From NCBI GenBank assembly GCA_027621365.1, contig JAQCBH010000007.1, positions 22,447-86,446 on the forward strand: a DNA stretch of 64,000 bases, written 5' to 3'. Under the pieces are notes generated by a model. The model was not told the DNA's origin and searched no databases. It worked only from the letters and a program-made list of their open reading frames with translations. Made by a program: the position numbers and the translations under genes. This stretch comes from Bacteroidota bacterium (GTDB lineage Bacteria; Bacteroidota; Bacteroidia; NS11-12g; UBA955). Of this stretch, positions 4,572 to 57,213 are shown piece after piece; position 1 is the stretch's first letter; every line of letters begins with the position of its first letter.

Positions 4572-4613
4572 CAGGATTGCCTCGTTCGGCTATCGCCGAA
4601 CTCGGCGAACCTG
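4572..4613 (-). repeat. Split T-arm-like hairpin element, copy at tRNA-Leu(GAG)
   Basis: Minus strand reads CAGGTTC-GCC-GA-GTTCGGC-GATA-GCCGAAC-GA-GGC-AATCCTG. The flanks are nearly identical to 57044..57082. Confidence 0.8.
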
Positions 4614-4628
4614 AGGGGCGATCTTACC

Positions 4629-4750
4629 CAAGGCCCGGCTTCCTCGCGCAGCGAGGAAGTGGCCTTTCTTTTTTCCTCTCAGGCTCAACCCTTTGGCTTG
4701 GCCTTCGCTGAAAAAAGAAAGGCCCAGCAGCCTGCGGCTGCCGGGCCTTG
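4629..4750. repeat. Four-way cruciform (nested inverted repeats) directly 3' of tRNA-Leu(GAG)
   Basis: Outer arms CAAGGCCCGGC (4629-4639) / GCCGGGCCTTG (4740-4750); perfect 15-bp central arms GGCCTTTCTTTTTTC (4661-4675) / GAAAAAAGAAAGGCC (4710-4724); two side hairpins. Confidence 0.85.
4711..4749 (-). terminator. Intrinsic terminator of tRNA-Leu(GAG)
   Basis: Minus strand AAGGCCCGGCAGCC-GCA-GGCTGCTGGGCCTTTCTTTTTT, a GC-rich stem followed by a U tract. Confidence 0.75.
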
Positions 4751-4834
4751 TGCCCAGTACTGGATTCGAACCAGCACGTCCTTGCGAACACCACCCCCTC
4801 AAGATGGCGTGTCTACCAATTTCACCAACTGGGC
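4751..4834 (-). tRNA. tRNA-Leu(GAG)
   Basis: GCCCAGTTGGTGAAATTGGTAGACACG-CCATC-TTGAGGG-GGTGG, long variable arm, GCTGGTTCGAATCCAGTACTGGGCA. CCA is not encoded. Confidence 0.96.
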
Positions 4835-4868
4835 GTTTGCACCGAAGTGCCCCGGGTGAACGGGGTGG

Positions 4869-4876
4869 CAAATATA
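4869..4876 (-). promoter_or_regulatory. Bacteroidota -7 promoter element for tRNA-Leu(GAG)
   Basis: TATATTTG on the minus strand matches TAnnTTTG. The same GGGGTGGCAAATATA context occurs upstream of tRNA-Leu(CAG). Confidence 0.75.
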
Positions 4877-4918
4877 AAGCTTGAAGAGCAAAGGAAATTC
4901 CTTGGCTGGGAATAAAAA

Positions 4919-5608
4919 TTAGCGCCAGTAAAGCTTGTAGACTAGGGCCAATAGGGGAGCTACCAATGCGCCGCCAATCAAAAGACCCAAGCGAATGGGG
5001 TCTTGGCCCAAAGCATGGCTATTCAAAAGCAGAGCCCATAACAATCCGACGGCGGCACCACCCAAATGGCCTTCGTGTGAAACGCGAGCCAACTCGGCTT
5101 TCTTGGAAAACATAAGCCCGGTAGAAACCAGTCCAAATAAGGTGCCAAAGAGCCAGCCGGGAATGGCCACGGGCAAGAATAGCAAGGAAAGTCGCAGGTC
5201 AGGGGCCAGAAACAAGAGGAAATAGATGCATCCGACGACACCGCCTGAGGCACCAAGGGCCAAATAAACCGGGCGATCACGACGAAACAAAAGGGAATAT
5301 TGACCTGCCCCTAACACGGCGGTCCAAAAGACCAGGCTGGCCGCGAGGGCGCCAAAGGGTTGGGGTAGCAAGGATTCCAGCGTAGGGCCGAAAAAGTATA
5401 GGGTAAGCCCATTGAAGAGCAGGTGCATCGGGCCGCTGTGCACCAATGCATGGGTGAACAGGCGATAGCGCTGTTTGCGGTATCGGGAGTCTAGCAGCAA
5501 ATTGCCTACTATATTGGGATTGCCCATAGAGGCAATGAAGACCAAGACCAACAAGCCAATGTGCAGGTAGGTGAAGGGAGAATCGATCCAAATGGGTCCT
5601 AGGCGCAT
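4919..5608 (-). CDS. Rhomboid family intramembrane serine protease
   Basis: HALVHSGPMHLLFN, catalytic GASG and SHEGHLGGA. Start re-assigned to ATG 5608, which overlaps the upstream stop. Confidence 0.9.
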   Translation of the reverse strand: MRLGPIWIDSPFTYLHIGLLVLVFIASMGNPNIVGNLLLDSRYRKQRYRLFTHALVHSGPMHLLFNGLTLYFFGPTLESLLPQPFGALAASLVFWTAVLGAGQYSLLFRRDRPVYLALGASGGVVGCIYFLLFLAPDLRLSLLFLPVAIPGWLFGTLFGLVSTGLMFSKKAELARVSHEGHLGGAAVGLLWALLLNSHALGQDPIRLGLLIGGALVAPLLALVYKLYWR

Positions 5609-6324
5609 CAGGGTTGTATCAAAATTAGTCCGGATCCGGGGCCTTCGCGCTGCACCTTGAAAGAGGCTTGGCGCTTGCAAACCAAGTTCCCGGAATTGAA
5701 TAGATAGGCAAACAATTGCTTGTCGGGGCTGATGAAGGCATCGTGCACGGTGTAATGTCGAATGTAGGCATCGTCGCACCACAAGTCACGGGCATTCAAG
5801 GAGCTGCTTTGTTCCAAACTCCAGGACACGATGTTGGCGCGGCCCGAAACCGTCAATAGGCTCTGGTTGTCACTGCCTCCAAATAATTGTCCGGTTTGTA
5901 CCTTGAGCTCTTGGTTCATGATGCTGCCTTGAATGACCTGCAGCGCTGGAGTTCGCAAGGTGTCGAGGCACTGCACTTGGGCGGCATCGAGAATGTGCAA
6001 CAAAGACAGATTCAAAACATTCAAGGTGCACCGAGGGGCAGGATCTTCCGGTCTAAGAAAGCGGCCCTTGTTGGCATCGCGCAAGACCAGTCGTCCGTTA
6101 TTGATTTGGGCTTGAAGGCCGTCCAAACGATGGTTGAGATGGTCCCAAACCAGAAACTGCCCAGAGTCGGGATTGCAACACAGGTAAAGGTCGATTCTGT
6201 CATGTACTTCGAGCTCTTGGAACGGCTGCAGTTGCAGAAAGCAAAAGTCTCTGACCGGCTCATCGGTTTTGCGGCAGCCACCCAATAGGAGCAGGGCCAT
6301 TGCTATTAGCCAAAGTCGAGACAT
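5608..6324 (-). CDS. Lipoprotein with DUF2807 (GIN / auto-transporter adhesin head-like) domain
   Basis: Lipobox LLLGGC; FQELEVHDRIDL and LTVSGRA...LNARDL beta-solenoid pattern typical of DUF2807. Confidence 0.65.
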   Translation of the reverse strand: MSRLWLIAMALLLLGGCRKTDEPVRDFCFLQLQPFQELEVHDRIDLYLCCNPDSGQFLVWDHLNHRLDGLQAQINNGRLVLRDANKGRFLRPEDPAPRCTLNVLNLSLLHILDAAQVQCLDTLRTPALQVIQGSIMNQELKVQTGQLFGGSDNQSLLTVSGRANIVSWSLEQSSSLNARDLWCDDAYIRHYTVHDAFISPDKQLFAYLFNSGNLVCKRQASFKVQREGPGSGLILIQP

Positions 6325-6361
6325 GCTTACAAAGGTGGGGTTCAGCCCCTATATTTGACCC

Positions 6362-6970
6362 ATGCGCCTAGCTTTTCTCTGCATTTGTCTACTCGTGAGT
6401 CCTCTTGTGGCCCAGCCTGGATTGGAAGATGGCCCAGAAGCCCCGGCTAGAGAGGCGGCTCAGGCCATGCGTTCGCGTCAATTCATCAAGGCCGAATACA
6501 TTTACCGGAACATGTTGGCCTCCGATCCCACATCGAACACCACACGGCAATTGTTGAGTCATGCATTGATCATGCAGGGGCGTTACTTTGAGGCCGATTC
6601 GATCAACCGTTCCATCATTCTCAAAGACAGTATGGTGGCGGGTTCCTATTGGTACTTGGCGTTGAGCGCCGAGCGCCAAGATCAATACGATCGGGCGGTG
6701 TATCTGTTTGATCGGTATTTGGACAAAACCAAAGGGCAGTCTACTCAGAATCAATCGGCCTGGCTTCACATGGGCAGCAATTTGCGCCGCAAGATGCACC
6801 AACAAGGAATTGACGAAGAGGAATGGGGGTTGATGCAGCACTATTACAAACAGTATTTGAGTGGCAATCCGCCTGATCCTTATGTGGATTCTCTGTATGC
6901 CTTTTTGGATGAGGTGCGCCGCCGCCGCCCAGCACCTGGAACCCAACTGGTTTGGGACGAGGCTCAGTAA
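6362..6970 (+). CDS. Exported tetratricopeptide-repeat protein
   Basis: Signal peptide; helical TPR-like repeats (LSHALIMQGRYFEA, YLALSAERQDQYDRA). Confidence 0.65.
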   Translation: MRLAFLCICLLVSPLVAQPGLEDGPEAPAREAAQAMRSRQFIKAEYIYRNMLASDPTSNTTRQLLSHALIMQGRYFEADSINRSIILKDSMVAGSYWYLALSAERQDQYDRAVYLFDRYLDKTKGQSTQNQSAWLHMGSNLRRKMHQQGIDEEEWGLMQHYYKQYLSGNPPDPYVDSLYAFLDEVRRRRPAPGTQLVWDEAQ

Positions 6971-7058
6971 TCGAACTGCATACAAACGGGTATAGCCGTT
7001 TGCCTGGCATTGGGCTAGTACGGAAGGCCCTATCTTTGCGTTAACCATCGACCCTTTC

Positions 7059-8279
7059 GTGAACAAAAGCAAGATCATCAACGATCCCCTACACGGGTTT
7101 CTCGCCATTCCCACCTCCTTGTTGTACGATGTCATTCAACATCGCTACTTCCAACGCTTGAGGCGCATACGTCAGTTGGGCATGAGCGAATGGGTCTATC
7201 CAGGAGCCATTCACACCCGCTTTGGCCATGCTTTAGGGGCTTTGAATCTGACCTGGCAGGCTTTGGAATCTCTGCAGAAAAAGGGGGTGGAGATCAGCGC
7301 TGAGGAAAAGGAAGCCACGGCCTTAGCCATACTTCTGCACGACATCGGTCACGGCCCTTTTAGCCACACCTTGGAACACACCTTGATTCGCGAGGTCAAT
7401 CACGAAGACATTTCCCTTCGCATCATGCAGCGCATGAATGAAGAATTCAAGGGTGCCTTGGACTTAGCCATTCGAATTTTTCAGGGGCAGTACCCCGAGA
7501 AGCCCTTTTTGAGCGAATTGATTTCGGGCCAATTGGACATGGATCGATTGGACTACTTGCTTCGTGATAGTTTTTATACGGGCGTCAGCGAAGGCATTGT
7601 AGGAGCTGAACGCATTCTGCATATGCTCCATGTAGTTGATGGCCATTTGGCCGTTGAGGAAAAGGGCATTTACAGCGTTGAGAAATTCTTGATCGCTCGG
7701 CGATTGATGTATTGGCAAGTGTACTTGCACAAGACGGTCATTTCGGCCGATGCCTTGTTGGTAGCCATTTTGAAACGAGCCCGGGTATTGGCGGCTGAGC
7801 ATCACTCCTTGGGAATGTATCATCCGCTGTTGCATTTCCTATTCAGAGACGTGCACTTTGGCAACTTCGACGAGGAAGCATTGGATTTGTTCCTGCAGCT
7901 GGATGATATCGACATTGTGTCGTCCATCAAGCATTGGCAGTTCCACGAAGACCGCATCTTGTCCCTGCTTTCTCACGCTATGTTGCAGCGTCGCCTGCCC
8001 AAGGTGAAAGTTCAATTGCAGCCCTTTAGCGAAGGAGAATGGAACATTTACCGCAGCCAAGTTCAGAGTGAATTGGGATTGGCTGACGACGAAATTGACT
8101 ATTTCGTCTCCCGCGGTAAGCTGGAAAACAACGCCTACCGAAGCGAGGGAGGAGGCATTCGAATATTGCGCAAAGACGGCCGTGTTCAAGATGTCGCCGA
8201 AGCTTCAGACAATTACAACTTATCGGCCTTGGAAGAAACCGTGGTCAAGCATTACATCACCCATTTTGTAACCACGTGA
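7059..8279 (+). CDS. HD-domain phosphohydrolase (dNTP triphosphohydrolase-like)
   Basis: FQRLRRIRQLG, HTRFGHALG, LLHDIGHGPFSH, DMDRLDYLLRD and MYWQVYLHK. Confidence 0.92.
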   Translation: MNKSKIINDPLHGFLAIPTSLLYDVIQHRYFQRLRRIRQLGMSEWVYPGAIHTRFGHALGALNLTWQALESLQKKGVEISAEEKEATALAILLHDIGHGPFSHTLEHTLIREVNHEDISLRIMQRMNEEFKGALDLAIRIFQGQYPEKPFLSELISGQLDMDRLDYLLRDSFYTGVSEGIVGAERILHMLHVVDGHLAVEEKGIYSVEKFLIARRLMYWQVYLHKTVISADALLVAILKRARVLAAEHHSLGMYHPLLHFLFRDVHFGNFDEEALDLFLQLDDIDIVSSIKHWQFHEDRILSLLSHAMLQRRLPKVKVQLQPFSEGEWNIYRSQVQSELGLADDEIDYFVSRGKLENNAYRSEGGGIRILRKDGRVQDVAEASDNYNLSALEETVVKHYITHFVTT

Positions 8280-9103
8280 AACCCCGTCGTTTTCAACCCC
8301 TAAGACCTGCTCAAGCCTCGCACGAAGGTGTCAAAGCCAAGAAGGGTTTGGGCCAGCATTTTTTACGCGATGGAGGCATTGCCGCTGATATCGCTGATTT
8401 GGTATTGCCCGAATGCGACCAAGTGGTTGAAATTGGACCGGGTACTGGGGTGTTGACCCGATTGTTATACCCCAAATGGGCCGAGAAGCTCAGTTGTGTG
8501 GAGCTGGATTCAGAATCGGTGCTGCACTTGTCTCAGCAAAACTGGGCGGCCGGTCTTAAGGTGGTAGAAGGCGATTTTCTCGCTCTGAATTTGCGCGATT
8601 TGTTCGGCTCAGAACTTCCATGTTTGATCGGCAACTACCCCTATAACATATCGACACAAATTGCGTTTGCGGTCGTGGAAAGCCCTGTGCCCATATACCA
8701 ATTTGCCGGCATGTTTCAGCGCGAGGTCGCCTTGCGGTTGTGCGCAGGTCCCGGAAACAAAGACTATGGCATTACCTCGGTACTCTTGCAAGCCTATTAC
8801 GACTGCCAATATTGTTTCACGGTAGAGCCACATTCCTTTGAGCCACCGCCAAAGGTGCGCAGTGGGGTTATGACCTGCACCCGCAAAGCCGAGTGTCCAG
8901 ATGTATCCTACAAGGCGCTCAAATCGGTGGTGAAAATGGCCTTCAATCAACGGCGAAAAACCCTGTCAAATGCGTTAAAGCCTTTGCTGAGCACCCGAGA
9001 TGATTTTCAACTTCCCGAACATTGGGCCGGATTGAGAGCCGAACAGTTGGGCGTGGTGGATTTTTTGACCCTGGCTCGCATGTTTGAAGAATCAAATCAT
9101 TGA
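8276..9103 (+). CDS. rsmA: 16S rRNA m6,2A1518/1519 dimethyltransferase
   Basis: KAKKGLGQHFL, EIGPGTGVLT, GNYPYNIS, F.PPPKV.S and AFNQRRKTL. Confidence 0.96.
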   Translation: MKPRRFQPLRPAQASHEGVKAKKGLGQHFLRDGGIAADIADLVLPECDQVVEIGPGTGVLTRLLYPKWAEKLSCVELDSESVLHLSQQNWAAGLKVVEGDFLALNLRDLFGSELPCLIGNYPYNISTQIAFAVVESPVPIYQFAGMFQREVALRLCAGPGNKDYGITSVLLQAYYDCQYCFTVEPHSFEPPPKVRSGVMTCTRKAECPDVSYKALKSVVKMAFNQRRKTLSNALKPLLSTRDDFQLPEHWAGLRAEQLGVVDFLTLARMFEESNH

Positions 9104-9246
9104 CCTGTTGTCATTTGATCTTTTTCACCCCTCATTTTCATCCCATTTTTATTGCATTTGGACCTAAAAAATCCGTGAAAAAATCCATCAAATCCTGAGC
9201 GGTATGCCTATTTTTGCCTGACTTAAATCCTAATTAGGCTTAGAAG

Positions 9247-10707: not shown

Positions 10708-10730
10708 CAAACAACAATTCCAAAAAGAAT

Positions 10731-12614: not shown

Positions 12615-12622
12615 TCCCGAAT

Positions 12623-14532: not shown

Positions 14533-14536
14533 TCGA

Positions 14537-15133: not shown

Positions 15134-15141
15134 CATTTTTC

Positions 15142-15906: not shown

Positions 15907-15923
15907 CCGCTTAAACGAACAAT

Positions 15924-16262
15924 ATGGATTTCCACGTTAAACCCGGCGAATACGATGCCATCAACTATATCCCTCACACCGAAAGTCACGGTACCAAAGA
16001 ATTGTGGCGCACGTTTTGGTTGTTGTTGGGCATCACGATCCTAGACTTTGTGATTTATTTCGTCATGCCTGCTACAGGTTTGAGAAACTTCATCTTCATT
16101 TTCTTCGGATTGGTAAAAGCCTATTACATTGTTGGTGCCTTCATGCACTTGAAGCACGAGAAAATCAATTTGGCTTTGATCATTTTGGTGCCAACCATTT
16201 TTATTGTTGGACTCATCATGGGTCTGTTGTACGAAGGAAACGCCCTCACCTGGGTCAAGTAA
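15924..16262 (+). CDS. Cytochrome c oxidase subunit IV family protein
   Basis: Three TM helices with KAYYIVGAFMHLKHE; expected position in the cox operon. Confidence 0.88.
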   Translation: MDFHVKPGEYDAINYIPHTESHGTKELWRTFWLLLGITILDFVIYFVMPATGLRNFIFIFFGLVKAYYIVGAFMHLKHEKINLALIILVPTIFIVGLIMGLLYEGNALTWVK

Positions 16263-16268
16263 TTCTGC

Positions 16269-17475: not shown

Positions 17476-17484
17476 CTTTGCTCC

Positions 17485-18166: not shown

Positions 18167-18182
18167 CAATAGGAATTTTGAA

Positions 18183-20060: not shown

Positions 20061-22931
20061 ATGCAATACAGCGCCCGCTACTCAAAGCCTTTCGCAGAGC
20101 GCCACAACGGCTCACACGGAGAGGACCTTCAGGCCATGTTGGAAACGGTTGGAGTTTCCAGTTTGGACGAGTTGATCAGCAAGACCATTCCTGCCAACAT
20201 TCGCTTGCCGAAAGAGTTGAACATTGGAGAGGCCTTGACGGAGAGTGAGTTTCTTGCTATGCTCAAAGGCAAAGCGGCTAAGAACAAGTTGTTCAAGCAC
20301 CACATTGGAATGGGCTATTACGATACCCTGACCCCCGGTGTGATTTTGCGCAACATCATGGAAAATCCAGGTTGGTACACGGCTTATACGCCCTACCAAG
20401 CAGAGATTGCCCAAGGTCGTTTGGAAGCCTTGTTGAACTACCAGACCATGGTCATTGACTTGAGCGGTATGGAGATTGCCAACGCTTCATTGTTGGACGA
20501 AGGTACGGCCGCAGCTGAGGCCATGAACATGTTCCGCGCCGCCGATAAAAAAGGCGTGGCTCATCGTTTCTTTGTCGATCAGCATACCTTCCCACAGACC
20601 CTGGATGTGTTGATCACCCGCGCTGAACCCGTTGGCGTGGAGATTGTGACCGGCGATTTCGCTACGGCCAATTTGGACGACACTTACTTCGGAGCCCTGA
20701 TTCAATACCCCAATAGCAACGGTAGCATCGAAGACGTTCGCGCCTTTGTGGCTGATTGCAAAACCAAGGGCATCAAAACTGTTTTTGCCTCCGATTTGAT
20801 GGCATTGACTTTGTTGACTTCACCCGGTGATTTGGGCGCTGACTGCGTAGTGGGAAATACCCAGCGCTTCGGTGTACCCATGGGCTTCGGTGGTCCTCAT
20901 GCAGCCTTCTTTGCCACCAAAGACGAATACAAGCGCCAGATTCCAGGTCGCATCATCGGTGTTTCAATTGACAAGCGCGGCGAACGTGCCTTGCGCATGG
21001 CCTTGCAAACCCGTGAACAGCATATAAAGCGCCAGAACGCTACCTCCAACATTTGCACAGCGCAGGTATTATTGAGCATCATGGCCAGTATGTACGGCGT
21101 GTACCATGGCCCCGACGGATTGAAAAAAATCGCCGGCCGCATACACGCTCAAACCCGTTTGTTGGAACAGGCCTTGACCCAGTTGGGATACACCCAATTG
21201 AACGGCCACTATTTCGATACCCTCAAGGTAGCCGCTGACGAACAAGCCGTTCGCAAAGTGGCGGAAGCACAGGGCCGCAACTTGCGCTATTTCGGAGATG
21301 GTCACGTGGGTATTTCCATTGACGAGACCTGCACCGAGAAAGACATTCAGGTATTGGCTGACATCTTCGCAGCCGCCAAAAACACCAGCGCATCGGCAGT
21401 GTACGCTTCAGGTGATAGCGTGGCTGTGAATTGGCCCGCTTGGGCTCAACGCCAGAGCAATTTCATGTTGCACCCTGTGTTCAACTCTTATCATATCGAG
21501 CACGACATGTTGCGTTACATCAAGTCTTTGGAAGCCAAAGATCTCAGCTTGTGCCACAGCATGATTTCCTTGGGTTCTTGTACCATGAAGTTGAATGCAA
21601 CCACAGAGATGATTCCCGTTACCTGGCCTGAATTCAACTCTCAGCACCCCTTCGTGCCTGTTGATCAGGTAAAAGGATACTTGGAGATGATCGAAGAACT
21701 GAATCAAGACCTGTCTGAAATCACCGGTTTCGACCGCATGAGCATGCAGCCTAACTCAGGTGCTCAGGGTGAATACGCCGGTTTGATGGTCATTCGCGAA
21801 TACTTCAAAGACCGCGGCGAAGCTCACCGCAACATAGCCTTGATTCCGTCTTCTGCTCACGGAACCAACCCCGCTTCTGCCGTCATGGCAGGAATGAAGG
21901 TGGTGGTTACCGCATGCGACGAACTTGGAAACATTGACATTGCCGATTTGCGCGCCAAAGCCGAAGAGCACAAGGACAACTTGGCTTGCTTGATGGTGAC
22001 TTATCCTTCGACACATGGAGTATACGAGGCCGGCATTCGCGAAATCACTCAGATCATTCACGACAACGGCGGTCAGGTGTATATGGACGGAGCCAACATG
22101 AATGCTCAGGTGGGATTGACTTCTCCCGGCATGATTGGGGCTGACGTTTGCCACTTGAACTTGCACAAGACCTTCTGCATTCCTCACGGTGGGGGTGGAC
22201 CTGGTATGGGCCCCATCGGTGTGGCTAAGCATTTGACTCCTTATTTGCCTTCTCACGCGGTTATTCCAACCGGTGGTGACAAGGCCATGCACGCGGTTTC
22301 TGCAGCCCCTTATGGTTCAGCGAGCATCCTTTTGATCTCGTATGCCTACATCAAAATGATGGGTGGCGACGGATTGAAAGCTGCCACCGAGATCGCCATC
22401 TTGAATGCCAACTACATGAAGGCGCGTTTGGAGAAAGAGATTCCCATTTTGTACAAAGGCGAGAACGGATTCTGCGCCCACGAAATGATCTTGGATACCC
22501 GCGTGTTCAAACAAAGCTGTGGCATTGAAGCCGAAGATTTTGCCAAGCGTTTGATGGATTACAATTTCCACGCTCCAACCTTGAGCTTCCCTGTGGCCGG
22601 TACCTTGATGATCGAGCCTACCGAGAGCGAAAGCAAGGCAGAGTTGGATCGTTTCTGCGATGCCATGTTGAGCATTCGCGAAGAGATTCGCGCCATTGAA
22701 AACGGCCAAGCCGATGCTCATGACAACTTATTGAAGTCTGCGCCTCACTGTGCCGATGAAGTCATTTCCAGCGATTGGAATCACAGCTTCAGCCGTGAGC
22801 AGGCAGCCTTCCCATTGCCCTATGTGAAAGCCAACAAATTCTGGCCTACCGTGTCTCGTGTGAACAACACCCACGGTGACCGCAATTTGGTTTGCGCTTG
22901 CCTACCTTTGGAAGCCTACGCCGAGGCCTAA
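20061..22931 (+). CDS. gcvP: Glycine dehydrogenase (decarboxylating), glycine cleavage P protein
   Basis: [32 protein letters not shown] and PLP lysine in [18 protein letters not shown]. Confidence 0.98.
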
Positions 22932-25450: not shown

Positions 25451-27000
25451 GTTCGGGGTGTAAGGGTGACCAATGGGCACATCATTTCTTCCAGCGAAAT
25501 GCCTCCATGTTGGAAGGTGTTTCGGTAGTAATTGACGTAGTGGTTGTAGTTGTTGGGGTAGGCGAAAAAGTCGTTGTCTTTGGCGAAGACGAAGGCAGAA
25601 CTCAAGTGCTGCAAGGGCAAATACAGGTCGGCGGGTTTGCGAACCTCGTACACTTCTTTGGCATTGTAACTGAGGTTTTTGCCCTGCTTGTAGCGCAGGT
25701 TGGTATTGACGTTTTTATCGCCGACAATCTTCACGGGGTCTTTGACACGAATGCTACCGTGATCGGTGGTGATGATGACTTTGCAGGGTTTGGTGCTGAG
25801 CCATTGCAAGGCTTCCCACAAGGGGGAATGCTTGAACCAAGTGGCCATGACGTTGCGGTAAGCGGCCTCGTCTTCGGCCAATTCCCGCACGATTCGGTTG
25901 TCGGTTCGGGCGTGACTGAAGGCATCGACAAAGTTGTAGACGATGACATTCAGTTTGTTGTTCAACATGTTGGGAACATGGTCGGCCATTTCCTTGGCGT
26001 TTTGCAGGTTGGTGACCTTGGTGTACGAGAATTTGATGTCCCGGCGCAATCGCTTGAGCAAGTCGGCCAAGAAGGCTTCTTCGTGCAGGTTTTTGCCGCC
26101 TTCGTCTTCGTCGTTGCTCCACATTTTGGGGAATCGCTTCTCAATTTCCTGGGGCAGCAATCCGCTGAAAATGGCGTTGCGGCAGTATTGGGTCGTGGTC
26201 GGCAAGATGGACAAGTACAAATCTTCGTTGCGCACCCGGTAGCGATCTTGCATGATATCGCCAATGGCTTTCCATTGGTCGAAGCGCAGGTTGTCCATCA
26301 ATATGACAAATACGGGAACATCGCCATCTAACTCGGGGTTGATGCTTCGGCGAAACAGGTTGTGGCTCATGATGGGGCCATCGTCACCCGTCGGATGAAG
26401 AAAGCCAGCAAACTGATCTTGAATGAAACGGGCAAAGTTTCGGTTGGCATCCAACTTTTGGGTTTCCAAGATCTCTATCATGGAGCCCTCGTTGGTCTTG
26501 TCGAACTCCATTTCCCAAAACACCAATTTCTTGTAAACCTCTTTCCACTCGTCAAAGCGCAAACGATCGCTGACGGTCATCCCAATTTGCATGAACTCGC
26601 GCTGGTAGCCTTGGGTGGTTTTTTGACCTACCAATCGCTTCTCATCCAAGTTTTTCTTGATGGACAGCAGAATCTGGCTAGGGTTCACCGGCTTGATCAA
26701 ATAATCGGCGATTTTGGAACCAATGGCTTCTTCCATGATGTGTTCCTCCTCGCTTTTGGTGATCATGATAACCGGAATCTCGCTCTTGAGTTGTTTGATC
26801 TGAGCCAAGGCATCCAAGCCCGAAATGCCGGGCATGTTTTCGTCCAAAAAAATCAAATCAAACGATTCGGCTTTCACCGCATCAATGGCGTCGCGACCGC
26901 TGCTCACGGGGTGCAGTTCGTAACCCTTGCCCTCCAAGAAGAGAATATGGGGTTTCAGCAAGTCAATTTCGTCGTCGGCCCAGAGAATTCGCGGTTTCAT
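25447..27000 (-). CDS. porX: T9SS response regulator PorX (receiver + PglZ alkaline-phosphatase domain)
   Basis: ILWADDEIDLLKPH, LDENMPG, DNLRFDQW, SILPTTTQYCRNAIFSG, TTDHG and FQHGGISLEEM. Confidence 0.93.
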   Translation of the reverse strand: MKPRILWADDEIDLLKPHILFLEGKGYELHPVSSGRDAIDAVKAESFDLIFLDENMPGISGLDALAQIKQLKSEIPVIMITKSEEEHIMEEAIGSKIADYLIKPVNPSQILLSIKKNLDEKRLVGQKTTQGYQREFMQIGMTVSDRLRFDEWKEVYKKLVFWEMEFDKTNEGSMIEILETQKLDANRNFARFIQDQFAGFLHPTGDDGPIMSHNLFRRSINPELDGDVPVFVILMDNLRFDQWKAIGDIMQDRYRVRNEDLYLSILPTTTQYCRNAIFSGLLPQEIEKRFPKMWSNDEDEGGKNLHEEAFLADLLKRLRRDIKFSYTKVTNLQNAKEMADHVPNMLNNKLNVIVYNFVDAFSHARTDNRIVRELAEDEAAYRNVMATWFKHSPLWEALQWLSTKPCKVIITTDHGSIRVKDPVKIVGDKNVNTNLRYKQGKNLSYNAKEVYEVRKPADLYLPLQHLSSAFVFAKDNDFFAYPNNYNHYVNYYRNTFQHGGISLEEMMCPLVTLTPRT

Positions 27001-27058
27001 TGAGTAAATATGCGTTAAAAATCGTGCCAAAGATTCGGATTTTTTGCAACTTTGATCC

Positions 27059-27724
27059 ATGAGTTCGCACCACGTCGTTCGGGACCTTCAAGAGCCGGCC
27101 TTGATTTTGGCAAATGGAGCTCCTTGTGGGGAAGAACTCTTGGGGCAACTCTTGGAATGGAGCCCCTTTACTCTTGTGTTGGATGGGGCCATTGAACGCG
27201 CCAGTCAATTGGGCATACGAGTCGATGCCTGGTTGGGTGATTTTGATTCAGGATCGGAACAAACCTATGCGGAGTTATCTGCTTTGCAACCCGTGGTCAA
27301 AATTGAGGCCCCCAATGCCGATAAAACCGACTTGGAAAAAGGGGTGGAGTGGTTGATTGCTCAGGGCCACAAGGCGGTGAATATCGTTTGGGCTACGGGC
27401 AAACGCGCCGATCATACGGTCAACAACATGATGGGATTGGCTGCCTATTCCCATCAGATCAACTGGTCCATTTTGGATGATCACTCGCGGGTCTTTGAAG
27501 CACCGAATCCCTTTCGAAAATGGTATCCAGGGGGCACGGCCTTATCACTGATTCCCGTGGGGGAAGTCAAGGGGGTCTGCAGCGAAAATTTGGAGTGGGA
27601 ATTGGACCAATTGGATTTGTCCTATCCGCAGAGAAGTGGATCATCGAACCGGGTCAAAGCCGACGGATTCGTCACCGTAGAACGCCAATCTGGGCACTTG
27701 CTGCTCATGGAATGCTGGGATTAA
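27059..27724 (+). CDS. thiN: Thiamine diphosphokinase
   Basis: MSSHHVVRD.QEPAL, LGDFDS, KTDLEKG, ATGKRADH and GSSN. Confidence 0.9.
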   Translation: MSSHHVVRDLQEPALILANGAPCGEELLGQLLEWSPFTLVLDGAIERASQLGIRVDAWLGDFDSGSEQTYAELSALQPVVKIEAPNADKTDLEKGVEWLIAQGHKAVNIVWATGKRADHTVNNMMGLAAYSHQINWSILDDHSRVFEAPNPFRKWYPGGTALSLIPVGEVKGVCSENLEWELDQLDLSYPQRSGSSNRVKADGFVTVERQSGHLLLMECWD

Positions 27725-43217: not shown

Positions 43218-43232
43218 TCTAATTTTACAGCC

Positions 43233-44649: not shown

Positions 44650-44722
44650 ACTGCAAATGTACGCAGTGTCATATTTGCTTTGAGAATCGGACCTTTATTC
44701 CGTCAATGGGTATTTTTGCGAA

Positions 44723-47370: not shown

Positions 47371-47478
47371 GGTCCAAACTAGAGAAAAAAGAGGAAATGG
47401 TCTTAGTGAGGGGCAACTATTTTTTGTTTGTAGCACTACACTTTTGCAAGTTTGTCAGGGAATAGGCAATTTTGGAAC

Positions 47479-48573: not shown

Positions 48574-48609
48574 AGCCGCGCAGAATGCGGAACTTTGCAG
48601 CACAAATAG

Positions 48610-49854: not shown

Positions 49855-49855
49855 T

Positions 49856-51097
49856 ATGCAGTATTCTTCTATAGCCGAACGCTTCAGTGCCTATGCGCGC
49901 ATTGATACCCAGAGCGATCCCGATTCGCCTTCCCAACCCAGCACCGAAAAGCAAAAAAATCTGTCGCGTGTGTTGGTGAAAGAACTGTTGGATTTGGGAT
50001 TGAGTGACGCCGAATTGGACGAGCACGGGTATGTCTATGCTACCCTGCCTTCCAACGTGGATCACGACGTTCCCGTCATTTGCTGGTGCGCTCACGTCGA
50101 CACCTCTCCCGATTGCACGGGGGCCGGCGTGAAGCCCTTGATTCACCCCAATTACCAGGGCCAAGACATTGCGTTGCCCGACGATCCTACTCAGGTGATT
50201 CGACCTTCTGAGCATCCTTATTTGTTGGAGCGAATCGGCGATGATTTGATCACTGCTTCTGGAACGACCTTGTTGGGGGCTGACGACAAAGCGGGTGTGG
50301 CGGCCATTATGCATGCCGTTGAACACTTGGTGAACAATCCCAGCTTGAAGCACGGCAAGATTCGCATCTTGTTCACGCCTGATGAAGAAATCGGTCGTGG
50401 GGTTGACAAAGTGAACATTGAAAAATTAGGGGCTGACTACGGATATACCTTAGATGCGGGCGAACGCGGATGCTACGAAGAGGAAACCTTTTCAGCAGAC
50501 GGAGCCAAAGTGCATTTTTACGGCATCTCGGCTCACCCCGGATACGCCAAAGACAAATTGGTCAATGCGCTGAAAGTAGCCGGTGATTTCCTGGCCCGTT
50601 TGCCCCGCACGGAGTGGTCTCCTGAGACGACCAGCAATCGTCAAGGTTTTGTTCACCCCGTAAGCATGGGTGGAGTAGCTGAACACGCTTGGGTTTCCTT
50701 CATCGTACGCGATTTCAATACCGCTGAATTGGCCGCTCACGAAGCTCGTTTGACAGCCTTGGCCGAAGCCATAATCGCTGAATGGCCCGGCGCTCGTTTT
50801 GAAGTCGAAGTCAGCGAGCAATACCGCAACATGAAGGACATGGTCTCTTTGACGCCTGCCATTTCCCGCAACGCCTTACAGGCCATAGAAGAGGCGGGTA
50901 TCAAGCCTCAATTGACCAGTGCCCGTGGTGGAACCGATGGCTCTCGTTTGAGTTTCATGGGTCTTCCTTGCCCCAATATTTTCACCGGTGAAATGGCCTT
51001 TCACGGCAAGCATGAATATGTCTTCGCCCAAGACATGGAAAAGAGTGCTGAGGTGCTTGTGAATTTGGCTCGCATCTGGACAGAAAATCCCAAATAA
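49856..51097 (+). CDS. pepT: Peptidase T (tripeptide aminopeptidase)
   Basis: AHVDTSPD, LLGADDKAG, FTPDEEIGRG, RGGTDGSRLSFMGLPCPN and FHGKHE. Confidence 0.96.
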   Translation: MQYSSIAERFSAYARIDTQSDPDSPSQPSTEKQKNLSRVLVKELLDLGLSDAELDEHGYVYATLPSNVDHDVPVICWCAHVDTSPDCTGAGVKPLIHPNYQGQDIALPDDPTQVIRPSEHPYLLERIGDDLITASGTTLLGADDKAGVAAIMHAVEHLVNNPSLKHGKIRILFTPDEEIGRGVDKVNIEKLGADYGYTLDAGERGCYEEETFSADGAKVHFYGISAHPGYAKDKLVNALKVAGDFLARLPRTEWSPETTSNRQGFVHPVSMGGVAEHAWVSFIVRDFNTAELAAHEARLTALAEAIIAEWPGARFEVEVSEQYRNMKDMVSLTPAISRNALQAIEEAGIKPQLTSARGGTDGSRLSFMGLPCPNIFTGEMAFHGKHEYVFAQDMEKSAEVLVNLARIWTENPK

Positions 51098-51101
51098 CTC
51101 C

Positions 51102-51109
51102 TATATTTG
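51102..51109 (+). promoter_or_regulatory. -7 promoter element for tRNA-Pro
   Basis: TATATTTG, 10 nt upstream of the mature tRNA 5' end. Confidence 0.75.
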
Positions 51110-51119
51110 CAGCCCCGTT

Positions 51120-51193
51120 CGGGATGTAGCGCAGCCCGGTAGCGCACTTGCATGGGGTGCAAGGGGTCGCTGGTTCGAATCCAGTCATCCCGA
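51120..51193 (+). tRNA. tRNA-Pro(GGG)
   Basis: CGGGATGTAGCGCAGCCCGGTAGCGCA-CTTGC-ATGGGGT-GCAAG-GGGTC-GCTGGTTCGAATCCAGT-CATCCCGA. CCA is not encoded. Confidence 0.96.
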
Positions 51194-51197
51194 CGAT

Positions 51198-51306
51198 CGA
51201 CAAGCCCCTGGCGAAAGCCAGGGGTTTTTTTTGGGTTGGCGCGTGAATGCCTGTGGCATTCCAAAGCGCCAACCCATAAAACCGCCGCGCAGCGGCGGGC
51301 TTGTCG
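51198..51306. repeat. Four-way cruciform directly 3' of tRNA-Pro
   Basis: Outer arms CGACAAGCCC (51198-51207) / GGGCTTGTCG (51297-51306); central arms TGGGTTGGCGC (51232-51242) / GCGCCAACCCA (51266-51276); side hairpins TGGC-GAAA-GCCA and GCCGC-GCA-GCGGC. Confidence 0.85.
51202..51232 (+). terminator. Intrinsic terminator of tRNA-Pro
   Basis: AAGCCCCTGGC-GAAA-GCCAGGGG followed by T8. Confidence 0.85.
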
Positions 51307-51324
51307 TTCAGGCCACCTCCTCAA

Positions 51325-51362
51325 GGATGGCCAAGGCCTATAAGGCCGAAGGCAATCCAGTC
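51325..51362 (+). repeat. Hairpin plus T-stem copy element, variant at tRNA-Pro
   Basis: GGATGGCC-AA-GGCCT-ATA-AGGCC-GA-AGGC-AATCCAGTC. The last 9 nt duplicate AATCCAGTC from the T-arm of tRNA-Pro. Confidence 0.65.
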
Positions 51363-51408
51363 GAGATTCTCTGTTGCCCTACTTCCCAGCCCGCAGTATC
51401 TTTACACC

Positions 51409-53359: not shown

Positions 53360-53991
53360 TGAGGGCGCTGCTGTTTGATCTGGATAACACCCTTTACCCG
53401 GAGGCTAATTATTTCCGAGCCATTTTTTCGCAGTTTTCGCAAAACGAAGGGCTGGATTTTGAAAGATTTGCATTTCTATTCAATGATTTTGACCACATTC
53501 GATTTACGCAGCGGGACATTTTTCGCTACGCTTTGAACCAAGCGGGCGAGTTTTCTGAGACTCGACACCAAGCTCTGTTTGAGTTGTTTGTGGGTATCAA
53601 ATGTGAACTGAAATCATACGATGGCGTACAAGAACTAATAGACTGGGCCCTCGCTGAAAACGTGCGCATCGGTGTATTGACCAACGGTCATATTGAGGCT
53701 CAGTCCAACAAATGGAATGGCTTGGCATTATCGGGCAAAGAACACATTCACTTTGCACCAGCCCGGCTTTTGGGCGCCGATAAACCTTCATCTCTAAGCT
53801 TCGAAGAAATGATGATTCAGATGGGTTGCCGAGCCGAGGAAACGCTCTTCATTGGCGACCGCTTTACCAACGACATAGAATGGGGATTGAATCAGGGTGG
53901 GAAGGGAGCCCTGGTGAATGCTCACGAGAAAGGCGAAGGAGTGCCTTCGTTTGAGTCATTTGAGCCATTGTTGGATTGGGTGAAGCGTTAG
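53359..53991 (+). CDS. HAD-superfamily hydrolase
   Basis: FDLDNTLY motif I, LTNG motif II, KP and FIGDRFTND motifs III/IV. Confidence 0.88.
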   Translation: MRALLFDLDNTLYPEANYFRAIFSQFSQNEGLDFERFAFLFNDFDHIRFTQRDIFRYALNQAGEFSETRHQALFELFVGIKCELKSYDGVQELIDWALAENVRIGVLTNGHIEAQSNKWNGLALSGKEHIHFAPARLLGADKPSSLSFEEMMIQMGCRAEETLFIGDRFTNDIEWGLNQGGKGALVNAHEKGEGVPSFESFEPLLDWVKR

Positions 53992-54029
53992 AATCTGTAA
54001 ATGTCCAAAGCCTGTAAATGGTGCAAAGT

Positions 54030-56153
54030 CTAGGGCTTTCGGCCACTCAAATTCCATCTAATACCGATAAACAAGCGCCTTCCTTGGTTGGGCGCGTAGA
54101 TGTAGGCGGGATCAAAGGTCAATCCAAAAGGATTTTCCGGGCTCACGAGAGCCTTTCCATCCGAATCGAATTCTACTAGCCTATCGAAGGGATCATGGCT
54201 GCGAGCAATGAGAAACGGATTGCCCTTATTGGGTGTCCAATTCAATAGGTTCTTTGCACCGCCATAGAATTCAATCTGGCCATTAAAGGTCTTGGTGAAC
54301 TGCACATTTTGAATGCTCCACCAAGGTGATTGATCTTTTCGAGGATCCCATGGGCTAAGCAAGGGCAGTAGCATGGGGCTGTAGACATTACCGGTGTAGT
54401 CGATTGATATTCCCAAAGTGCGAATCGGGTAGGACAAGTTCCAAGTGGCGGTGAACCTCTCCGTGAACATTTGCCGTTGGCGTTTGCCCTTATCAGAGGA
54501 AGATACGTCCATGATTGTTGCCCCCAGAGTAAACTTGATACCAGACTTCGAAAGACATTCCGTTTGCAATGAAAGTCCTGTTGATCGAGCTGTTCCTTTG
54601 AGGTTGTCATAGATGATTTTGTTGGGATCTGTCGTTAAATCAGCGATGATTTTGTTATCGAAATGGGTATAGAAAATGGCGGCATCCACTCCAAGGAGGG
54701 TTCCATTTTGATTGTGCATTCGCTTGGTGAAATTGATAGTGCCGTTCCAAGACCTTTCCGGTTTTAATTGCGATAGAAATACAACCTTCCTCGCCCCAGT
54801 AAGGGAGGCATGGTCTTCTGTGAAAACTTGGGCAATTCTGTATCCGTTGCCAATCCCACAGCGCAACACTTGTTGGCCATTCGGAGATTTCCATTTAAAG
54901 TTGAGCCGAGGGCTGACAATGTTTCCATGAATGGAATTCCTGTCGTAGCGAAGGCCCGTTAACAAGACTTTTCCCGTGCCCAAGTTCCATTCGTGTTGAC
55001 CAAACAAACCAGGCAAATGGGTGATTTGAGCGAGGTTGAACGATTGACCTAATGAATCGAAGAGGGTTGTCACCACTGTATTGTCGTCGTAGAATGTGTA
55101 GCGATAAGTGATGCCAGCCAGAAAATGATGTTGGTTCAGGGTTTTGTTCCAAGTGCATTGAGCAAATCCCACTCGCTGTTGAGCATTGAACAACAGATTC
55201 CCGTAAGCGCTGTTCTGTTGGTGGCCATTGGCGCTGAAGCTAAGCATCACATCCTCTTGAAAAGGCAGCTGGTATTGACCAAAGAACTCCCACCGACGGG
55301 TATCGATACTTTCTCCATAAATGCTATCACTTCCTCGGAATTCAGGTGTCCACTGCTGTTGACCGCCCCAGCGTTCTTCATTCACATAGCGAGCAGCGAC
55401 AGTGAGCAAACGACCCTCTCTGCGTTCCATGCTCCATTTGTTGAACAAGGATATACGGTCTTGCAGGGTGACATCGGTAAAGCCATCTGAATTGTGGTCA
55501 ATGGGGTTTTGGTAGTAGAAACGGTTCAATCCTACCAGCGAATGCAGTCTACTGCCCATTTTGGTGGCCCATCCTACATCCAAATTGCTTTCTGCCCAAG
55601 TGTTCGAAATGATGTCTACCTGAAGGGGTACGGTATTTTCTGCTTTTTTCGTGATGATGTTGATCAGGCCCCCTACAGCCTCGCTTCCATATAGGGTAGA
55701 GGCTGGCCCTTTGATGACTTCGACACGATCAATGATGGACTGAGGCATACTGGATAGGCCATATACGGTTGATAATCCGCTAACGATGGGCATTCCATCC
55801 ACCAGAACCATGGTGTAGGGACCTTCCAGCCCATTGATATGGACATCTCCGGTATTGCAAATGCTGCAGTTAATCTGGGGTCTCACCCCGTTGATTCCCT
55901 GCAGGGCTTCAAAGACAGATGGCGTAGGATTGGCCTTGAAATATTGGGCAGTAAAAACTTCAACAGGTACAGGATTTTCAAGTTTTGACATAGCCCTAAG
56001 AGTTCCCGTTACTACGACCTCTTCAAAAATGGAAGCCTTGGAAAGGCTGTCAGATTCCTGCGCAAAAGTGCTGTTGATCAGTCCTATTCCAAGGACCGAC
56101 ATCCAGCATTTGGCTCCACTGAATTGGCAAAATAGTTGTTGGATTGGGCGCAC
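54030..56153 (-). CDS. TonB-dependent receptor with CxxC plug (probable metal uptake)
   Basis: EEVVVTGT, GVRPQINCSICNTGDVHINGLEGPYT, RVEVIKGPASTLYGSEAVGG and C-terminal GRRLFIGIRW. Start uncertain (GTG 56153 or ATG 56102). Confidence 0.88.
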   Translation of the reverse strand: MRPIQQLFCQFSGAKCWMSVLGIGLINSTFAQESDSLSKASIFEEVVVTGTLRAMSKLENPVPVEVFTAQYFKANPTPSVFEALQGINGVRPQINCSICNTGDVHINGLEGPYTMVLVDGMPIVSGLSTVYGLSSMPQSIIDRVEVIKGPASTLYGSEAVGGLINIITKKAENTVPLQVDIISNTWAESNLDVGWATKMGSRLHSLVGLNRFYYQNPIDHNSDGFTDVTLQDRISLFNKWSMERREGRLLTVAARYVNEERWGGQQQWTPEFRGSDSIYGESIDTRRWEFFGQYQLPFQEDVMLSFSANGHQQNSAYGNLLFNAQQRVGFAQCTWNKTLNQHHFLAGITYRYTFYDDNTVVTTLFDSLGQSFNLAQITHLPGLFGQHEWNLGTGKVLLTGLRYDRNSIHGNIVSPRLNFKWKSPNGQQVLRCGIGNGYRIAQVFTEDHASLTGARKVVFLSQLKPERSWNGTINFTKRMHNQNGTLLGVDAAIFYTHFDNKIIADLTTDPNKIIYDNLKGTARSTGLSLQTECLSKSGIKFTLGATIMDVSSSDKGKRQRQMFTERFTATWNLSYPIRTLGISIDYTGNVYSPMLLPLLSPWDPRKDQSPWWSIQNVQFTKTFNGQIEFYGGAKNLLNWTPNKGNPFLIARSHDPFDRLVEFDSDGKALVSPENPFGLTFDPAYIYAPNQGRRLFIGIRWNLSGRKP

Positions 56154-56161
56154 TTCACGTT

Positions 56162-56204
56162 CAAAGTTAGAATAATCAAACAAAACAATTAGAATATGCT
56201 AATT
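56162..56204 (-). promoter_or_regulatory. -7 promoter (TAACTTTG, 56162-56169) overlapped by tandem palindromic operator candidates
   Basis: GTTAGAATAATCAAAC (56166-56181) and AATTAG-AATATG-CTAATT (56187-56204) share TTAGAATA with a 22-bp offset. Confidence 0.5.
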
Positions 56205-56345
56205 ATTTTTGGTTTGAAGCCATGAAAAGTCTTGGATCTGGGTGGAAAAGGCGACTATGGTATATGGAAATGGCAAGGGGGATCCCAGGCCATTTTTTCG
56301 CATTTTTAGAAATAATGAGGTTGCTTAGAGGAACACACTCAGTAA

Positions 56346-56367
56346 ATGTCGTGCAGATGTCGTGTAG
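56346..56367 (+). promoter_or_regulatory. 11-bp tandem direct repeat upstream of the XRE gene (operator candidate)
   Basis: ATGTCGTGCAG ATGTCGTGTAG, about 30 bp upstream of TATTTTTG (56398-56405). Confidence 0.45.
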
Positions 56368-56409
56368 GAATCAGAGATGTTGAAAGTGGGCTATGGCTAT
56401 TTTTGTACC

Positions 56410-56796
56410 ATGCAAATGGGCAGTGAGATCAAAAAGGCGCGAAAGCAAAAAGGGCTTACTCAAGCTGAGTTGGCGGAGCATTCTGGGTTGACCGAACGAA
56501 CCATTCAACGCATAGAAAACCACGAGGTTGAACCTTCTGCATACTCATTAGGAAAGTTGAGTGTGATACTGGAAGTTGATTTCCAAAACATGAAGGACAG
56601 TATCCAAAAGAGGCAGAATTACGGGTTGTATGGCTTTGTAATTGTTTATTCGGCCGCCATGATTTTCCGAGTGTTTTCTTCTACAACAGATTGGCCCTTT
56701 TGGTGGGAGTTCATCATTTGGCTTTCGGTGATTATAGGTGTTCTAAGTAAGCAGATCTACATTCCCTATTACCTGAAAAATTCGAAAAAAAATTAA
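56410..56796 (+). CDS. XRE-family HTH protein with two C-terminal TM helices
   Basis: IKKARKQKGLTQAELAEHSGLTERTIQRIENHEVEP followed by two hydrophobic helices. Confidence 0.85.
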   Translation: MQMGSEIKKARKQKGLTQAELAEHSGLTERTIQRIENHEVEPSAYSLGKLSVILEVDFQNMKDSIQKRQNYGLYGFVIVYSAAMIFRVFSSTTDWPFWWEFIIWLSVIIGVLSKQIYIPYYLKNSKKN

Positions 56797-56868
56797 ACTG
56801 CGTGTTTTCTGTGGTGGTACTGCCATTGAACGTTCGCGGTAATAACTAGCTGATATTTCTTCAAGAGC

Positions 56869-57082
56869 AGACAGGATTGCCTCGGCGGCGAAGCCGCCTG
56901 ATGCTATACCCGAATGAACCTCTGTTATCGCTAAGGTGAATTACCAGGAAGATTAGACAGGATTGCCTCGGCGGCTGCGCCGCCTGATGCTGTTTTCGAA
57001 TGAAGCTGTGTTATTGGTAAGGACAACAATCTGTGAGATTAGACAGGATTGCCTCGGCGGCTAAGCCGCCTCAGCGAACCTG
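56869..57082. repeat. 2.5 tandem copies of an 86-bp hairpin-containing unit
   Basis: AGACAGGATTGCCTCGGCGGC-NNN-GCCGCCT starts at 56869, 56955 and 57041, with loops GAA, TGC and TAA. The linkers are diverged but related. Confidence 0.92.
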
Positions 57083-57101
57083 TTAGGCCGAATTCCGAGC
57101 C

Positions 57102-57213
57102 CAAAGCCACCGCGCTTTCGCGCCGTGCTTTTTTCATTCCCTTTGGCTTGCTCACACGGGGTGTGGCTCGCGTCGGGAATGAAAAAAGCCCTTGGCCATA
57201 GCCAAGGGCTTTG
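57102..57213. repeat. Four-way cruciform directly 3' of tRNA-Leu(CAG)
   Basis: Outer arms CAAAGCC (57102-57108) / GGCTTTG (57207-57213); perfect 15-bp central arms GCTTTTTTCATTCCC (57127-57141) / GGGAATGAAAAAAGC (57175-57189); two side hairpins. Confidence 0.85.
57182..57212 (-). terminator. Intrinsic terminator of tRNA-Leu(CAG)
   Basis: Minus strand AAAGCCCTTGGC-TATG-GCCAAGGGCTTTTTT. Confidence 0.85.

Follow-up and report, generated by a model that had tools for sequence, protein, structure and literature searches.

tRNA genes are classic docking sites for mobile DNA. In the 64,000-nucleotide stretch analysed here (hereafter the window; positions 22,447 to 86,446 of contig JAQCBH010000007.1, assembly GCA_027621365.1, from a member of Bacteroidota), each of the three tRNA genes is followed by a short, strongly folding element made of a four-way junction and, beyond a linker, a second hairpin (module 2). 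With roughly even confidence we read it as an integrase-less miniature integrated element, placed behind each tRNA and equipped with two bidirectional terminators. The closest described counterparts are the genomic islands of tRNA and tmRNA genes, which in the account given in PMC4383910 consist of an intact gene, an insert and a displaced cognate 3' fragment in the same orientation; the element has this very arrangement, and it also shares with the islands, as portrayed there, a repeat starting in the T-loop, the use of tmRNA genes, tandem arrays and empty sites in relatives (here at tRNA-Met). Unlike the islands, which span 2-200 kb in the same account, it measures ca. 165-190 bp, holds no open reading frame (ORF) and thus neither an integrase nor any other gene, is almost wholly base-paired, and has its far T-arm copy split by a hairpin. 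Given that the Islander pipeline, as far as its description goes, drops candidates that are shorter than 2 kb or lack an integrase gene (PMC4383910), elements of this class would stay hidden from island mapping, and a whole class of miniature tRNA-gene occupants may have been overlooked.

Full-text searches of the literature turned up no account of such an element, and among Rfam 15 families only tRNA passes, by gathering threshold as by E-value threshold, the best other family reaching 35.4 bits where 55 bits are required. The element is of the tDNA-integrated kind, yet it is a member of no described family. Cis-mobilisable elements (CIMEs) are integrase-less remnants of integrative elements, measuring kilobases and derived by deletion from a known parent at one site; like them, the element is bounded by attachment-site repeats, misses a recombinase of its own and would need one in trans, whereas it has no known parent and occupies many tRNA types across the phylum. 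With miniature inverted-repeat transposable elements (MITEs) and with repetitive extragenic palindromes and their mosaics (REP/BIME), which often double as terminators, it has in common that it is short, non-coding, multi-copy, strongly folding and intergenic. Unlike MITEs, its ends (the outer stem and the left half of module 2) do not form an inverted repeat, and unlike both groups it makes no short target duplication, has no partner transposase that we could find, is strictly tied to tRNA-like 3' ends, and is flanked by a direct repeat of 17-22 or more bases of tRNA. Its two terminator hairpins (T1 and T2) resemble bidirectional intrinsic terminators, being G+C-rich with A- and T-tracts, although here the two are wired together by complementarity of their flanks, round a third long hairpin with a conserved tip, and are accompanied by a T-arm mimic. 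Finally, as in folded single-stranded DNA (ssDNA) attachment sites (integron attC, and the filamentous-phage attP used via Xer that PMC3091885 portrays), structure is kept over sequence and imperfect hairpins carry fixed mismatches on one strand. The likeness is one of analogy only: we identified neither an integron integrase nor a dif-like core, and the target is a tRNA T-loop. The Microviridae study itself deals with dif sites and not with tRNAs (PMC3091885).

Structure of the element and the second tRNA tail

The window lies on contig C19 of the genome that we label G000 (2.13 Mb, 35 contigs, 36 tRNA genes; G and L numbers denote genomes and loci throughout). ARAGORN finds exactly three tRNA genes in it, tRNA-Leu(GAG) at 4750-4834 on the minus strand, tRNA-Pro(GGG) at 51120-51194 on the plus strand (also Rfam RF00005) and tRNA-Leu(CAG) at 57222-57304 on the minus strand (also Rfam), and the 112-122 nt 3' of each fold into a four-way junction at minimum free energy, with 0 of 200 shuffles as stable. 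At Leu-GAG, the junction spans 4630-4749 (minus strand; -76.6 kcal/mol, z -6.84) and is composed of an outer stem (4742-4749 with 4630-4637), T1 (4727-4741), a central stem (4710-4724 with 4661-4675) that ends in a tip (4676-4709), and T2 (4639-4659). At Pro it spans 51198-51306 (plus strand; -74.4 kcal/mol, z -8.36), with outer stem 51198-51205 and 51299-51306, T1 51206-51223, central stem 51227-51242 and 51266-51281, tip 51243-51265 and T2 51282-51298. At Leu-CAG it spans 57102-57213 (minus strand; -62.6 kcal/mol, z -7.29), with outer stem 57208-57213 and 57102-57107, T1 57190-57207, central stem 57175-57189 and 57127-57141, tip 57142-57174 and T2 57109-57126. In all three, T1 is a G+C-rich hairpin with a U-tract, i.e., an intrinsic terminator forms a component and not the whole of the element, and the central stem makes use of the terminator T-tract. 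T1 and T2 each carry an A-rich tract on one flank and a T-rich tract on the other, so that both should be able to act in either direction; as these tracts and their extensions are crosswise complementary, a single strand is predicted to fold into the four-way junction round the long central hairpin.

Beyond the linker, all three copies have the module-2 hairpin, ending in GGCAATCC(T/A)G, at 4572-4613 (Leu-GAG, minus strand; fold z -4.65), 51323-51362 (Pro, plus strand, hairpin proper 51323-51360; z -1.98) and 57044-57082 (first copy at Leu-CAG, minus strand; z -1.80), each placed by fold and sequence together; taken by itself, the fold is significant for Leu-GAG and marginal for the other two. 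At Leu-CAG, module 2 continues as a tandem array (56869-57071, minus strand; 86-base period, 2.4 copies, 82% matches by Tandem Repeats Finder). The two-module layout proposed by the first-pass annotation, made from the letters of the window, is therefore present after all three genes, and the string CAAGCCAAAGGG that it reported from both Leu copies is indeed there. Its statement that the copies are built from different sequences does not hold. Judged from their alignment, the three are homologous members of one family, and aligned copies share the conserved tip of the central hairpin, a T2 of C-GNA-G type and the core of module 2. A covariance model of 171 positions (R1), built from an alignment of ten copies, matches the three elements at 4572-4748 (47.9 bits), 51196-51360 (62 bits) and 57044-57217 (51.5 bits).

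The end of module 2 is what ties the element to its tRNA. By sequence match, it is the T-loop AAT plus the 3' strand of the T-stem of the upstream tRNA, continuing into a copy of the acceptor 3' strand, i.e., a second tRNA tail. The window copies of this tail are partly decayed, with nine bases left at Pro, where module 2 terminates in AATCCAGTC (a 9-base copy of tRNA-Pro T-loop and T-stem), and fewer at the two Leu genes; at Leu-GAG, comparison with the tRNA 3' end places a decayed copy, from T-loop AATCC on, at 4562-4578 (minus strand), and the orthologue in G003 reads AATCCAG, identical to the tRNA there. Elsewhere the copies are far better kept: behind tRNA-Ser(GGA) of G003 the tail is perfect over 17 bases and followed by a second complete element, the G116 tail has all 22 bases (TCCTGCTCCCGCTACTAAAGAA) intact, with a plain terminator behind it, and in G052 it matches at 15 of 17 bases, with a terminator beyond that is similar to the T1 region of the element itself. 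From other classes of the phylum come a perfect 17-base copy (L123) and two near-perfect ones (L117 and L121), and at three loci complete units are separated by a complete tRNA tail. The GGC-AATCC(T/A)G ending noted in the first-pass annotation turns out to be this copy of the tRNA's own T-loop and T-stem, and as a motif alone GGCAATCCWG is not enriched in the window (11 matches, 11.35 expected), while its 8-base core occurs 280 times in G000, mostly inside genes.

The 5' strand of module 2 likewise equals the matching T-stem 5' strand, in many copies still with TTC after it, and both window Leu copies run T-stem, TTCG, inserted hairpin, AAT, T-stem (with tandem G·A in the inserted hairpin of Leu-GAG). 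Since both strands match the T-stem, module 2 is a T-arm copy split at about position 57/58 by a mini-hairpin. Of 73 copies, 61 show a C-GNA-G triloop in this mini-hairpin and 50 show tandem G·A mismatches, fractions that are biased upwards because about one third of the rows were found via the motif itself; T2 has a C-GNA-G triloop in 33 of the 73, and the tip and module-2 hairpins have motifs in common. The pair next to the loop of the mini-hairpin is G-C in some subfamilies and C-G in others, and the 5' strand, which pairs with the T-stem copy, varies by tRNA type. As the subfamilies are fitted to tRNA type, the elements appear dedicated to one tRNA each, unlike a transposon that duplicates any target. 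Such a conserved mini-hairpin, with its G·A mismatches and GNA triloop, presumably marks a protein still to be found.

That the element behaves as inserted DNA is supported by the direct repeats of the tail together with filled and empty sites. At tRNA-Met(CAT) of genus g7, the site is filled in G116, whereas five sister species (G122, G130, G136, G137, and G139) have a plain terminator directly 3' of the tRNA, homologous to the one that lies beyond the second tail copy in G116; the presence-absence difference at orthologous tRNAs that the first-pass annotation had looked to is thus borne out between species.

The paired structure itself has been maintained while its letters changed. It comprises 52 pairs, taken from the single folds of ten copies, with four module-2 pairs set by hand; RNAalifold on a plain MAFFT alignment of 18 copies recovered T2 alone. 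Among the ten copies, 77% of cells are paired, a value that 0 of 500 shuffles reached (64.9% in shuffles), and sliding the partners by one to three columns lowers it to 39-49%. In an alignment of 114 R1 matches from many genomes, 90.1% of cells are paired (57.7% in shuffles, 33-46% in slid controls) and 51 of the 52 pairs have changed on both sides, which upholds the covariation suspected earlier from three copies; as this alignment was fitted to R1, it leans towards the structure, and the conclusion is made safe by the size of the effect and by the independent single folds. Close relatives display the process directly. At tRNA-Ser(GGA), the elements of G000 and G003 are 60% identical, with 18 of 50 pairs changed on both sides yet still paired and six broken or changed on one side, and at the Cys and Pro loci the arms of the central stem have been replaced between congeneric species, still complementary, next to a nearly unchanged T1, T2, and tip. 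As a natural example of compensatory evolution, very fast and across four linked helices, the element is a clean one.

Occurrence in the source genome and the phylum

G000 holds ca. 11 loci, each directly 3' of a tRNA gene, a tmRNA gene or a displaced tRNA 3' fragment, or at a contig edge. Both flank complementarities are found at 12 of its 689 terminator-like sites (none in the control), and 11 of these 12 make up seven loci 3' of a tRNA gene or tRNA 3' fragment, the remaining one being a coding false positive; the junction structure is beyond chance and atypical of terminators in general, which disposes of the earlier concern that similar nesting might be just as common at ordinary ones. A looser scan and inspection by eye add Val-TAC, Arg-CCT, Leu-GAG and the tmRNA gene (this last from the repeat scan), together with a degenerate copy at His and, at Gly-GCC, a variant that forms a perfect inverted repeat. 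A profile of 18 aligned copies finds no further full copy in G000: its leftover matches cover the generic terminator part only, and all matches with E < 1e-5 that reach beyond that part are 3' of a tRNA or tRNA 3' fragment or at a contig edge. Screening for multibranch folds of any kind behind tRNAs was unspecific (48 of 82 regions pass). Together with the R1 matches in relatives, the genome scan and the profile support the proposed unannotated family at tRNA 3' ends.

Two of the G000 copies follow displaced tRNA 3' fragments instead of whole genes. The integrase-bearing islands of this genome leave displaced fragments that start in the T-loop, and it is these fragments that the element follows. 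One such stretch, of ca. 16 kb (contig C18, ~14.3-30.5 kb), is bordered by tRNA-Ser(TGA) and a displaced tRNA-like 3' fragment and encodes two tyrosine integrases (C18:15363-15860 and 26979-27392), with two tandem copies of the element beyond the fragment.

As contigs C1, C11, and C33 end and C7 begins inside or just after an element, these copies break the assembly of G000, and this suggests that they limit the assembly of genomes of this genus. In three assemblies of the same genus, many tRNAs are within 150 bases of a contig end. More broadly, the elements break metagenome assemblies at tRNA genes and supply the terminators of many tRNA operons.

Within the taxonomic family, 94 of 125 genomes from 13 of 15 genera have R1 matches, up to 12 in a single genome. 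Such matches also occur in 92 of 151 genomes of the order (61%; one family contributes 63 of 84 genomes and the other 28 of 66), and in 11 of 150 genomes sampled from the rest of the phylum, where inspection of the 11 loci leaves nine real elements beside a tRNA or tRNA 3' fragment and two plain terminators. Among 26 loci from the family's other genera, a tRNA (Ser, Met, Ala) ends 0-4 nt before the start of 21. Another is the second member of a tandem pair behind a tmRNA gene, one comes after a tRNA-like 3' fragment, and the last three lie at contig edges, immediately downstream of a tRNA-like or tmRNA-like 3' end. The 27-base module-2 motif GGGATCACGASCGNAGSGAGTARTCCC occurs in 92 stretches among species-representative genomes. 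Among the 80 of these that are listed, 76 are titled as Bacteroidota groups (Flavobacteriales, Bacteroidales, Saprospiraceae, and others), three come from one Rhizobium-labelled assembly and one is labelled as metagenome assembly only; 55 have a tRNA at most 260 nt upstream, tRNA-Ser in 50 cases, and most of the remaining stretches follow a tRNA fragment or an earlier tandem copy or are at a contig edge.

How the element may have arisen

In the reading that we hold at about even confidence, DNA would have recombined into the T-loop of a tRNA or tmRNA gene, giving an intact gene, the insert and a displaced 3' fragment. The element lies between the intact gene and a further copy of the tRNA 3' end, whose start falls in the T-loop near position 58. 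The insert would have replaced the tail of the tRNA, supplying a replacement 3' end, its own terminators T1 and T2 and module 2 at its far end, and would have left the native tail behind. In favour of this reading are the confinement to tRNA-like 3' ends, the tail repeats, the filled and empty tRNA-Met sites, the subfamilies fitted to tRNA type, copy numbers that differ among close strains, the arrays of 3-7 units, a wide though patchy distribution, and the T-loop sublocation shared with ordinary islands of G000. Integration might be performed by a tyrosine recombinase acting in trans in the T-loop, with the mini-hairpins as possible recognition sites, and the terminators would have been retained as the insert must end tRNA transcription and shield the gene. 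Alternatively, homologous knock-in could have been at work, in which the tRNA of a donor and the tail copy behind it find their counterparts in two adjoining stretches of the recipient's tRNA gene; both routes fit the data and are indistinguishable here.

Several observations weigh against the reading as an integrated element. The four tyrosine recombinases (PF00589) of G000 are two Xer-sized, Xer-like proteins and the two integrases of the tRNA-Ser(TGA) island, all in other parts of the genome and on other contigs than the window, which, as the first-pass annotation had remarked, encodes no cognate enzyme. No recombinase or transposase could be linked to the element, and a nuclease or recombinase gene, which the first-pass annotation had proposed to look for beside copies, does not recur among 74 ORFs downstream of motif-found loci (Pfam), which are heterogeneous and mostly housekeeping, with a few of island type (RhuM, an MmeI-type restriction enzyme, DUF4143 ATPases, a DDE transposase). 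Neither the phage and plasmid collections (blastn) nor viral contigs (27-base motif, 0 matches) yielded the element, and no autonomous parent is known from these; nor was an excised circle or attP junction seen in the assembled contigs of DNA runs. Classical attachment sites have an unbroken T-arm, and a T-arm interrupted by a hairpin, as here, is not known from any described integrase site. Arrays of 3-7 units exist in other genomes and, because their unit boundaries differ between loci (81, 128, and 179 bases), amplification at least looks local, by slippage, and not like repeated precise integration. Finally, the same tRNAs are occupied across genera (Met-CAT in four, Ser-GGA in several), which also fits the long vertical retention of something useful.

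It is possible, though we would give it only about one chance in five, that the element is a self-contained recombination cassette without an enzyme of its own. Its full tRNA copy and tail copy would serve as homology arms and, since these arms are adjacent in any recipient tRNA gene, host recombination could knock it in after DNA uptake; or else the split T-arm, as ssDNA, might mimic a tRNA-gene target accepted by a housekeeping recombinase. The pseudo T-arm would, in addition, act as a secondary landing pad for further islands that leaves the tRNA untouched. Insertions at this very point lean in that direction. At the Pro locus, module 2 is a strain-variable insertion point: in two metagenome runs from different studies a contig joins 51360 to 51384 via 954 other letters, exactly at the module-2 end, and G002 has a 77-base partial unit inserted after module 2 and flanked by a 10-base repeat, while a metagenome contig close to G001 (L125) has one extra unit. 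At L156, module 2 is directly followed by the start of an ORF with an integrase N-terminal domain, and 5.3 kb of DNA intervene between tRNA and element, a layout from which it follows that the element can sit within a tandem array of ordinary islands, and island-type genes come after module 2 in L128, L182, L199, and L200. The elements create extra copies of tRNA attachment sites, where further DNA is seen inserted.

A rival to which we likewise assign a minor share, one part in five, is that the host selects the element as a 3' module of its tRNA operons, a double bidirectional terminator or insulator and perhaps a processing signal, acting as RNA, inherited vertically and spread by duplication and gene conversion. 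The A-rich and T-rich flanks of T1 and T2 yield a hairpin with a U-tract on both strands, covariation is strong, 61% of the genomes searched in the order have the element, and the same tRNAs carry it in several genera. A strand bias agrees with it too. Counted over 73 non-overlapping copies, the outer stem, T1 and central stem together have 44 G·T and 12 A·C mismatches (p = 2e-5), an excess that selection on the sense single strand predicts; such selection is trivially true for T1 as a terminator and, judged from these counts, extends to the two junction-closing stems. The tip, T2, and module 2 show no such bias (47 to 51), i.e., the sign of single-strand selection is missing from the parts that carry GNA triloops. 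Moreover, sister species make do with a plain terminator at the same tRNA, a terminator needs neither a second copy of the tRNA 3' end nor tandem arrays, the good U-tract of T1 should end most transcripts before the rest of the module, and outside the order the element is sporadic. Of the terminator/antiterminator module put forward in the first-pass annotation, T1 and probably T2 stand as terminator components, whereas no sign of an antiterminator was seen.

A decidedly unlikely alternative, in our view at somewhat above one chance in ten, would have the element move as ssDNA in the manner of IS200/IS605 derivatives or of REP sequences with their RAYT transposases, by an HUH/Y1 enzyme that recognizes the tip and module-2 hairpins as subterminal hairpins on one strand. 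The hairpins are strand-specific (one copy scores 148.6 bits with the model forward and 42.8 bits reverse), and very stable DNA mini-hairpins are marked by C-GNA-G triloops and sheared G·A pairs, a lead in this direction though not a test; such triloops are typical of T2 and module 2, in the fractions given above (for module 2 with their upward bias), and the motifs common to tip and module 2 fit as well. Three high-copy genomes of genus g9 (G011, G095, and G097) have 3-5 Y1_Tnp genes each (IS200-like or RAYT-like, 155-196 aa), and one weak Y1_Tnp ORF adjoins the array at L144. Yet Y1_Tnp (PF01797) is absent from G000, G033, and G039, which have 6-12 model matches, the Y1 genes of g9 are not adjacent to elements, and this family is not known to make long direct repeats. 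The earlier idea of a mobile element working through folded ssDNA divides: inserted DNA is upheld by direct repeats and by filled and empty sites, while targeting through folded ssDNA receives no support from T2 and module 2, which lack G·T bias; and of the claim that GNA triloops favour a DNA-level role, the C-G-closed triloops are real, without the single-strand bias that would go with them. Overall, the interpretation in the first-pass annotation is partly supported.

Least probable, and in our estimate improbable, is a passive by-product, palindromes reshaped by hairpin-driven template switching and slippage at tRNA terminators and neither mobile nor functional: the exchanged central-stem arms of the Cys and Pro orthologues, the varying array-unit boundaries and the perfect inverted repeat of two halves at tRNA-Gly would fit, whereas the homology of tip, T2, and module 2 among a dozen tRNA types and across several orders, the acquisition of the element as a whole at filled sites and the lack of the structure at ordinary terminators of the same genome speak against it. 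Some further candidates were set aside. An integron attC shares with the element only the AAC...GTT ends of the outer stem, which resemble core sites; against a CRISPR array, the would-be "spacers" of the 86-base repeat resemble one another; for an opposite-strand small RNA gene, promoter-like elements do not recur at a fixed position; and the junction has arms of the wrong size for a tRNA-like cloverleaf. A casposon-type target duplication was considered too, without a search for Cas1.

Other features around the tRNA genes

At tRNA-Gly(GCC) of G001 (L017, 73-351, minus strand), perfectly inverted terminator copies enclose ca. 290 bases, compared with ca. 40 in G000 and G002; the 92-aa ORF between the G001 copies has no Pfam match. 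At tRNA-Met(CAT) of the same genome (L021), the element stops after T1 and the start of the central stem and is followed by sequence that, by eye, resembles the C-terminal DNA-binding part of a protein; the contig ends there. Behind tRNA-Val(GAC) of G000 (contig C5, ~120800-121000, minus strand), a direct repeat of ca. 40 bases that does not belong to the element family is present in two copies beyond a plain terminator and extends into the end of the convergent gene.

In the window, a 139-aa Xre-type helix-turn-helix protein (HTH_3, E = 3.8e-13) is encoded at 56377-56796 on the plus strand, in a low-G+C patch just past the module-2 array of Leu-CAG and convergent with the tRNA. All three window tRNAs have TATATTTG ca. 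10 bases upstream (4835-4860, 51095-51119, and 57305-57335), which fits the -7 promoter element of Bacteroidota.

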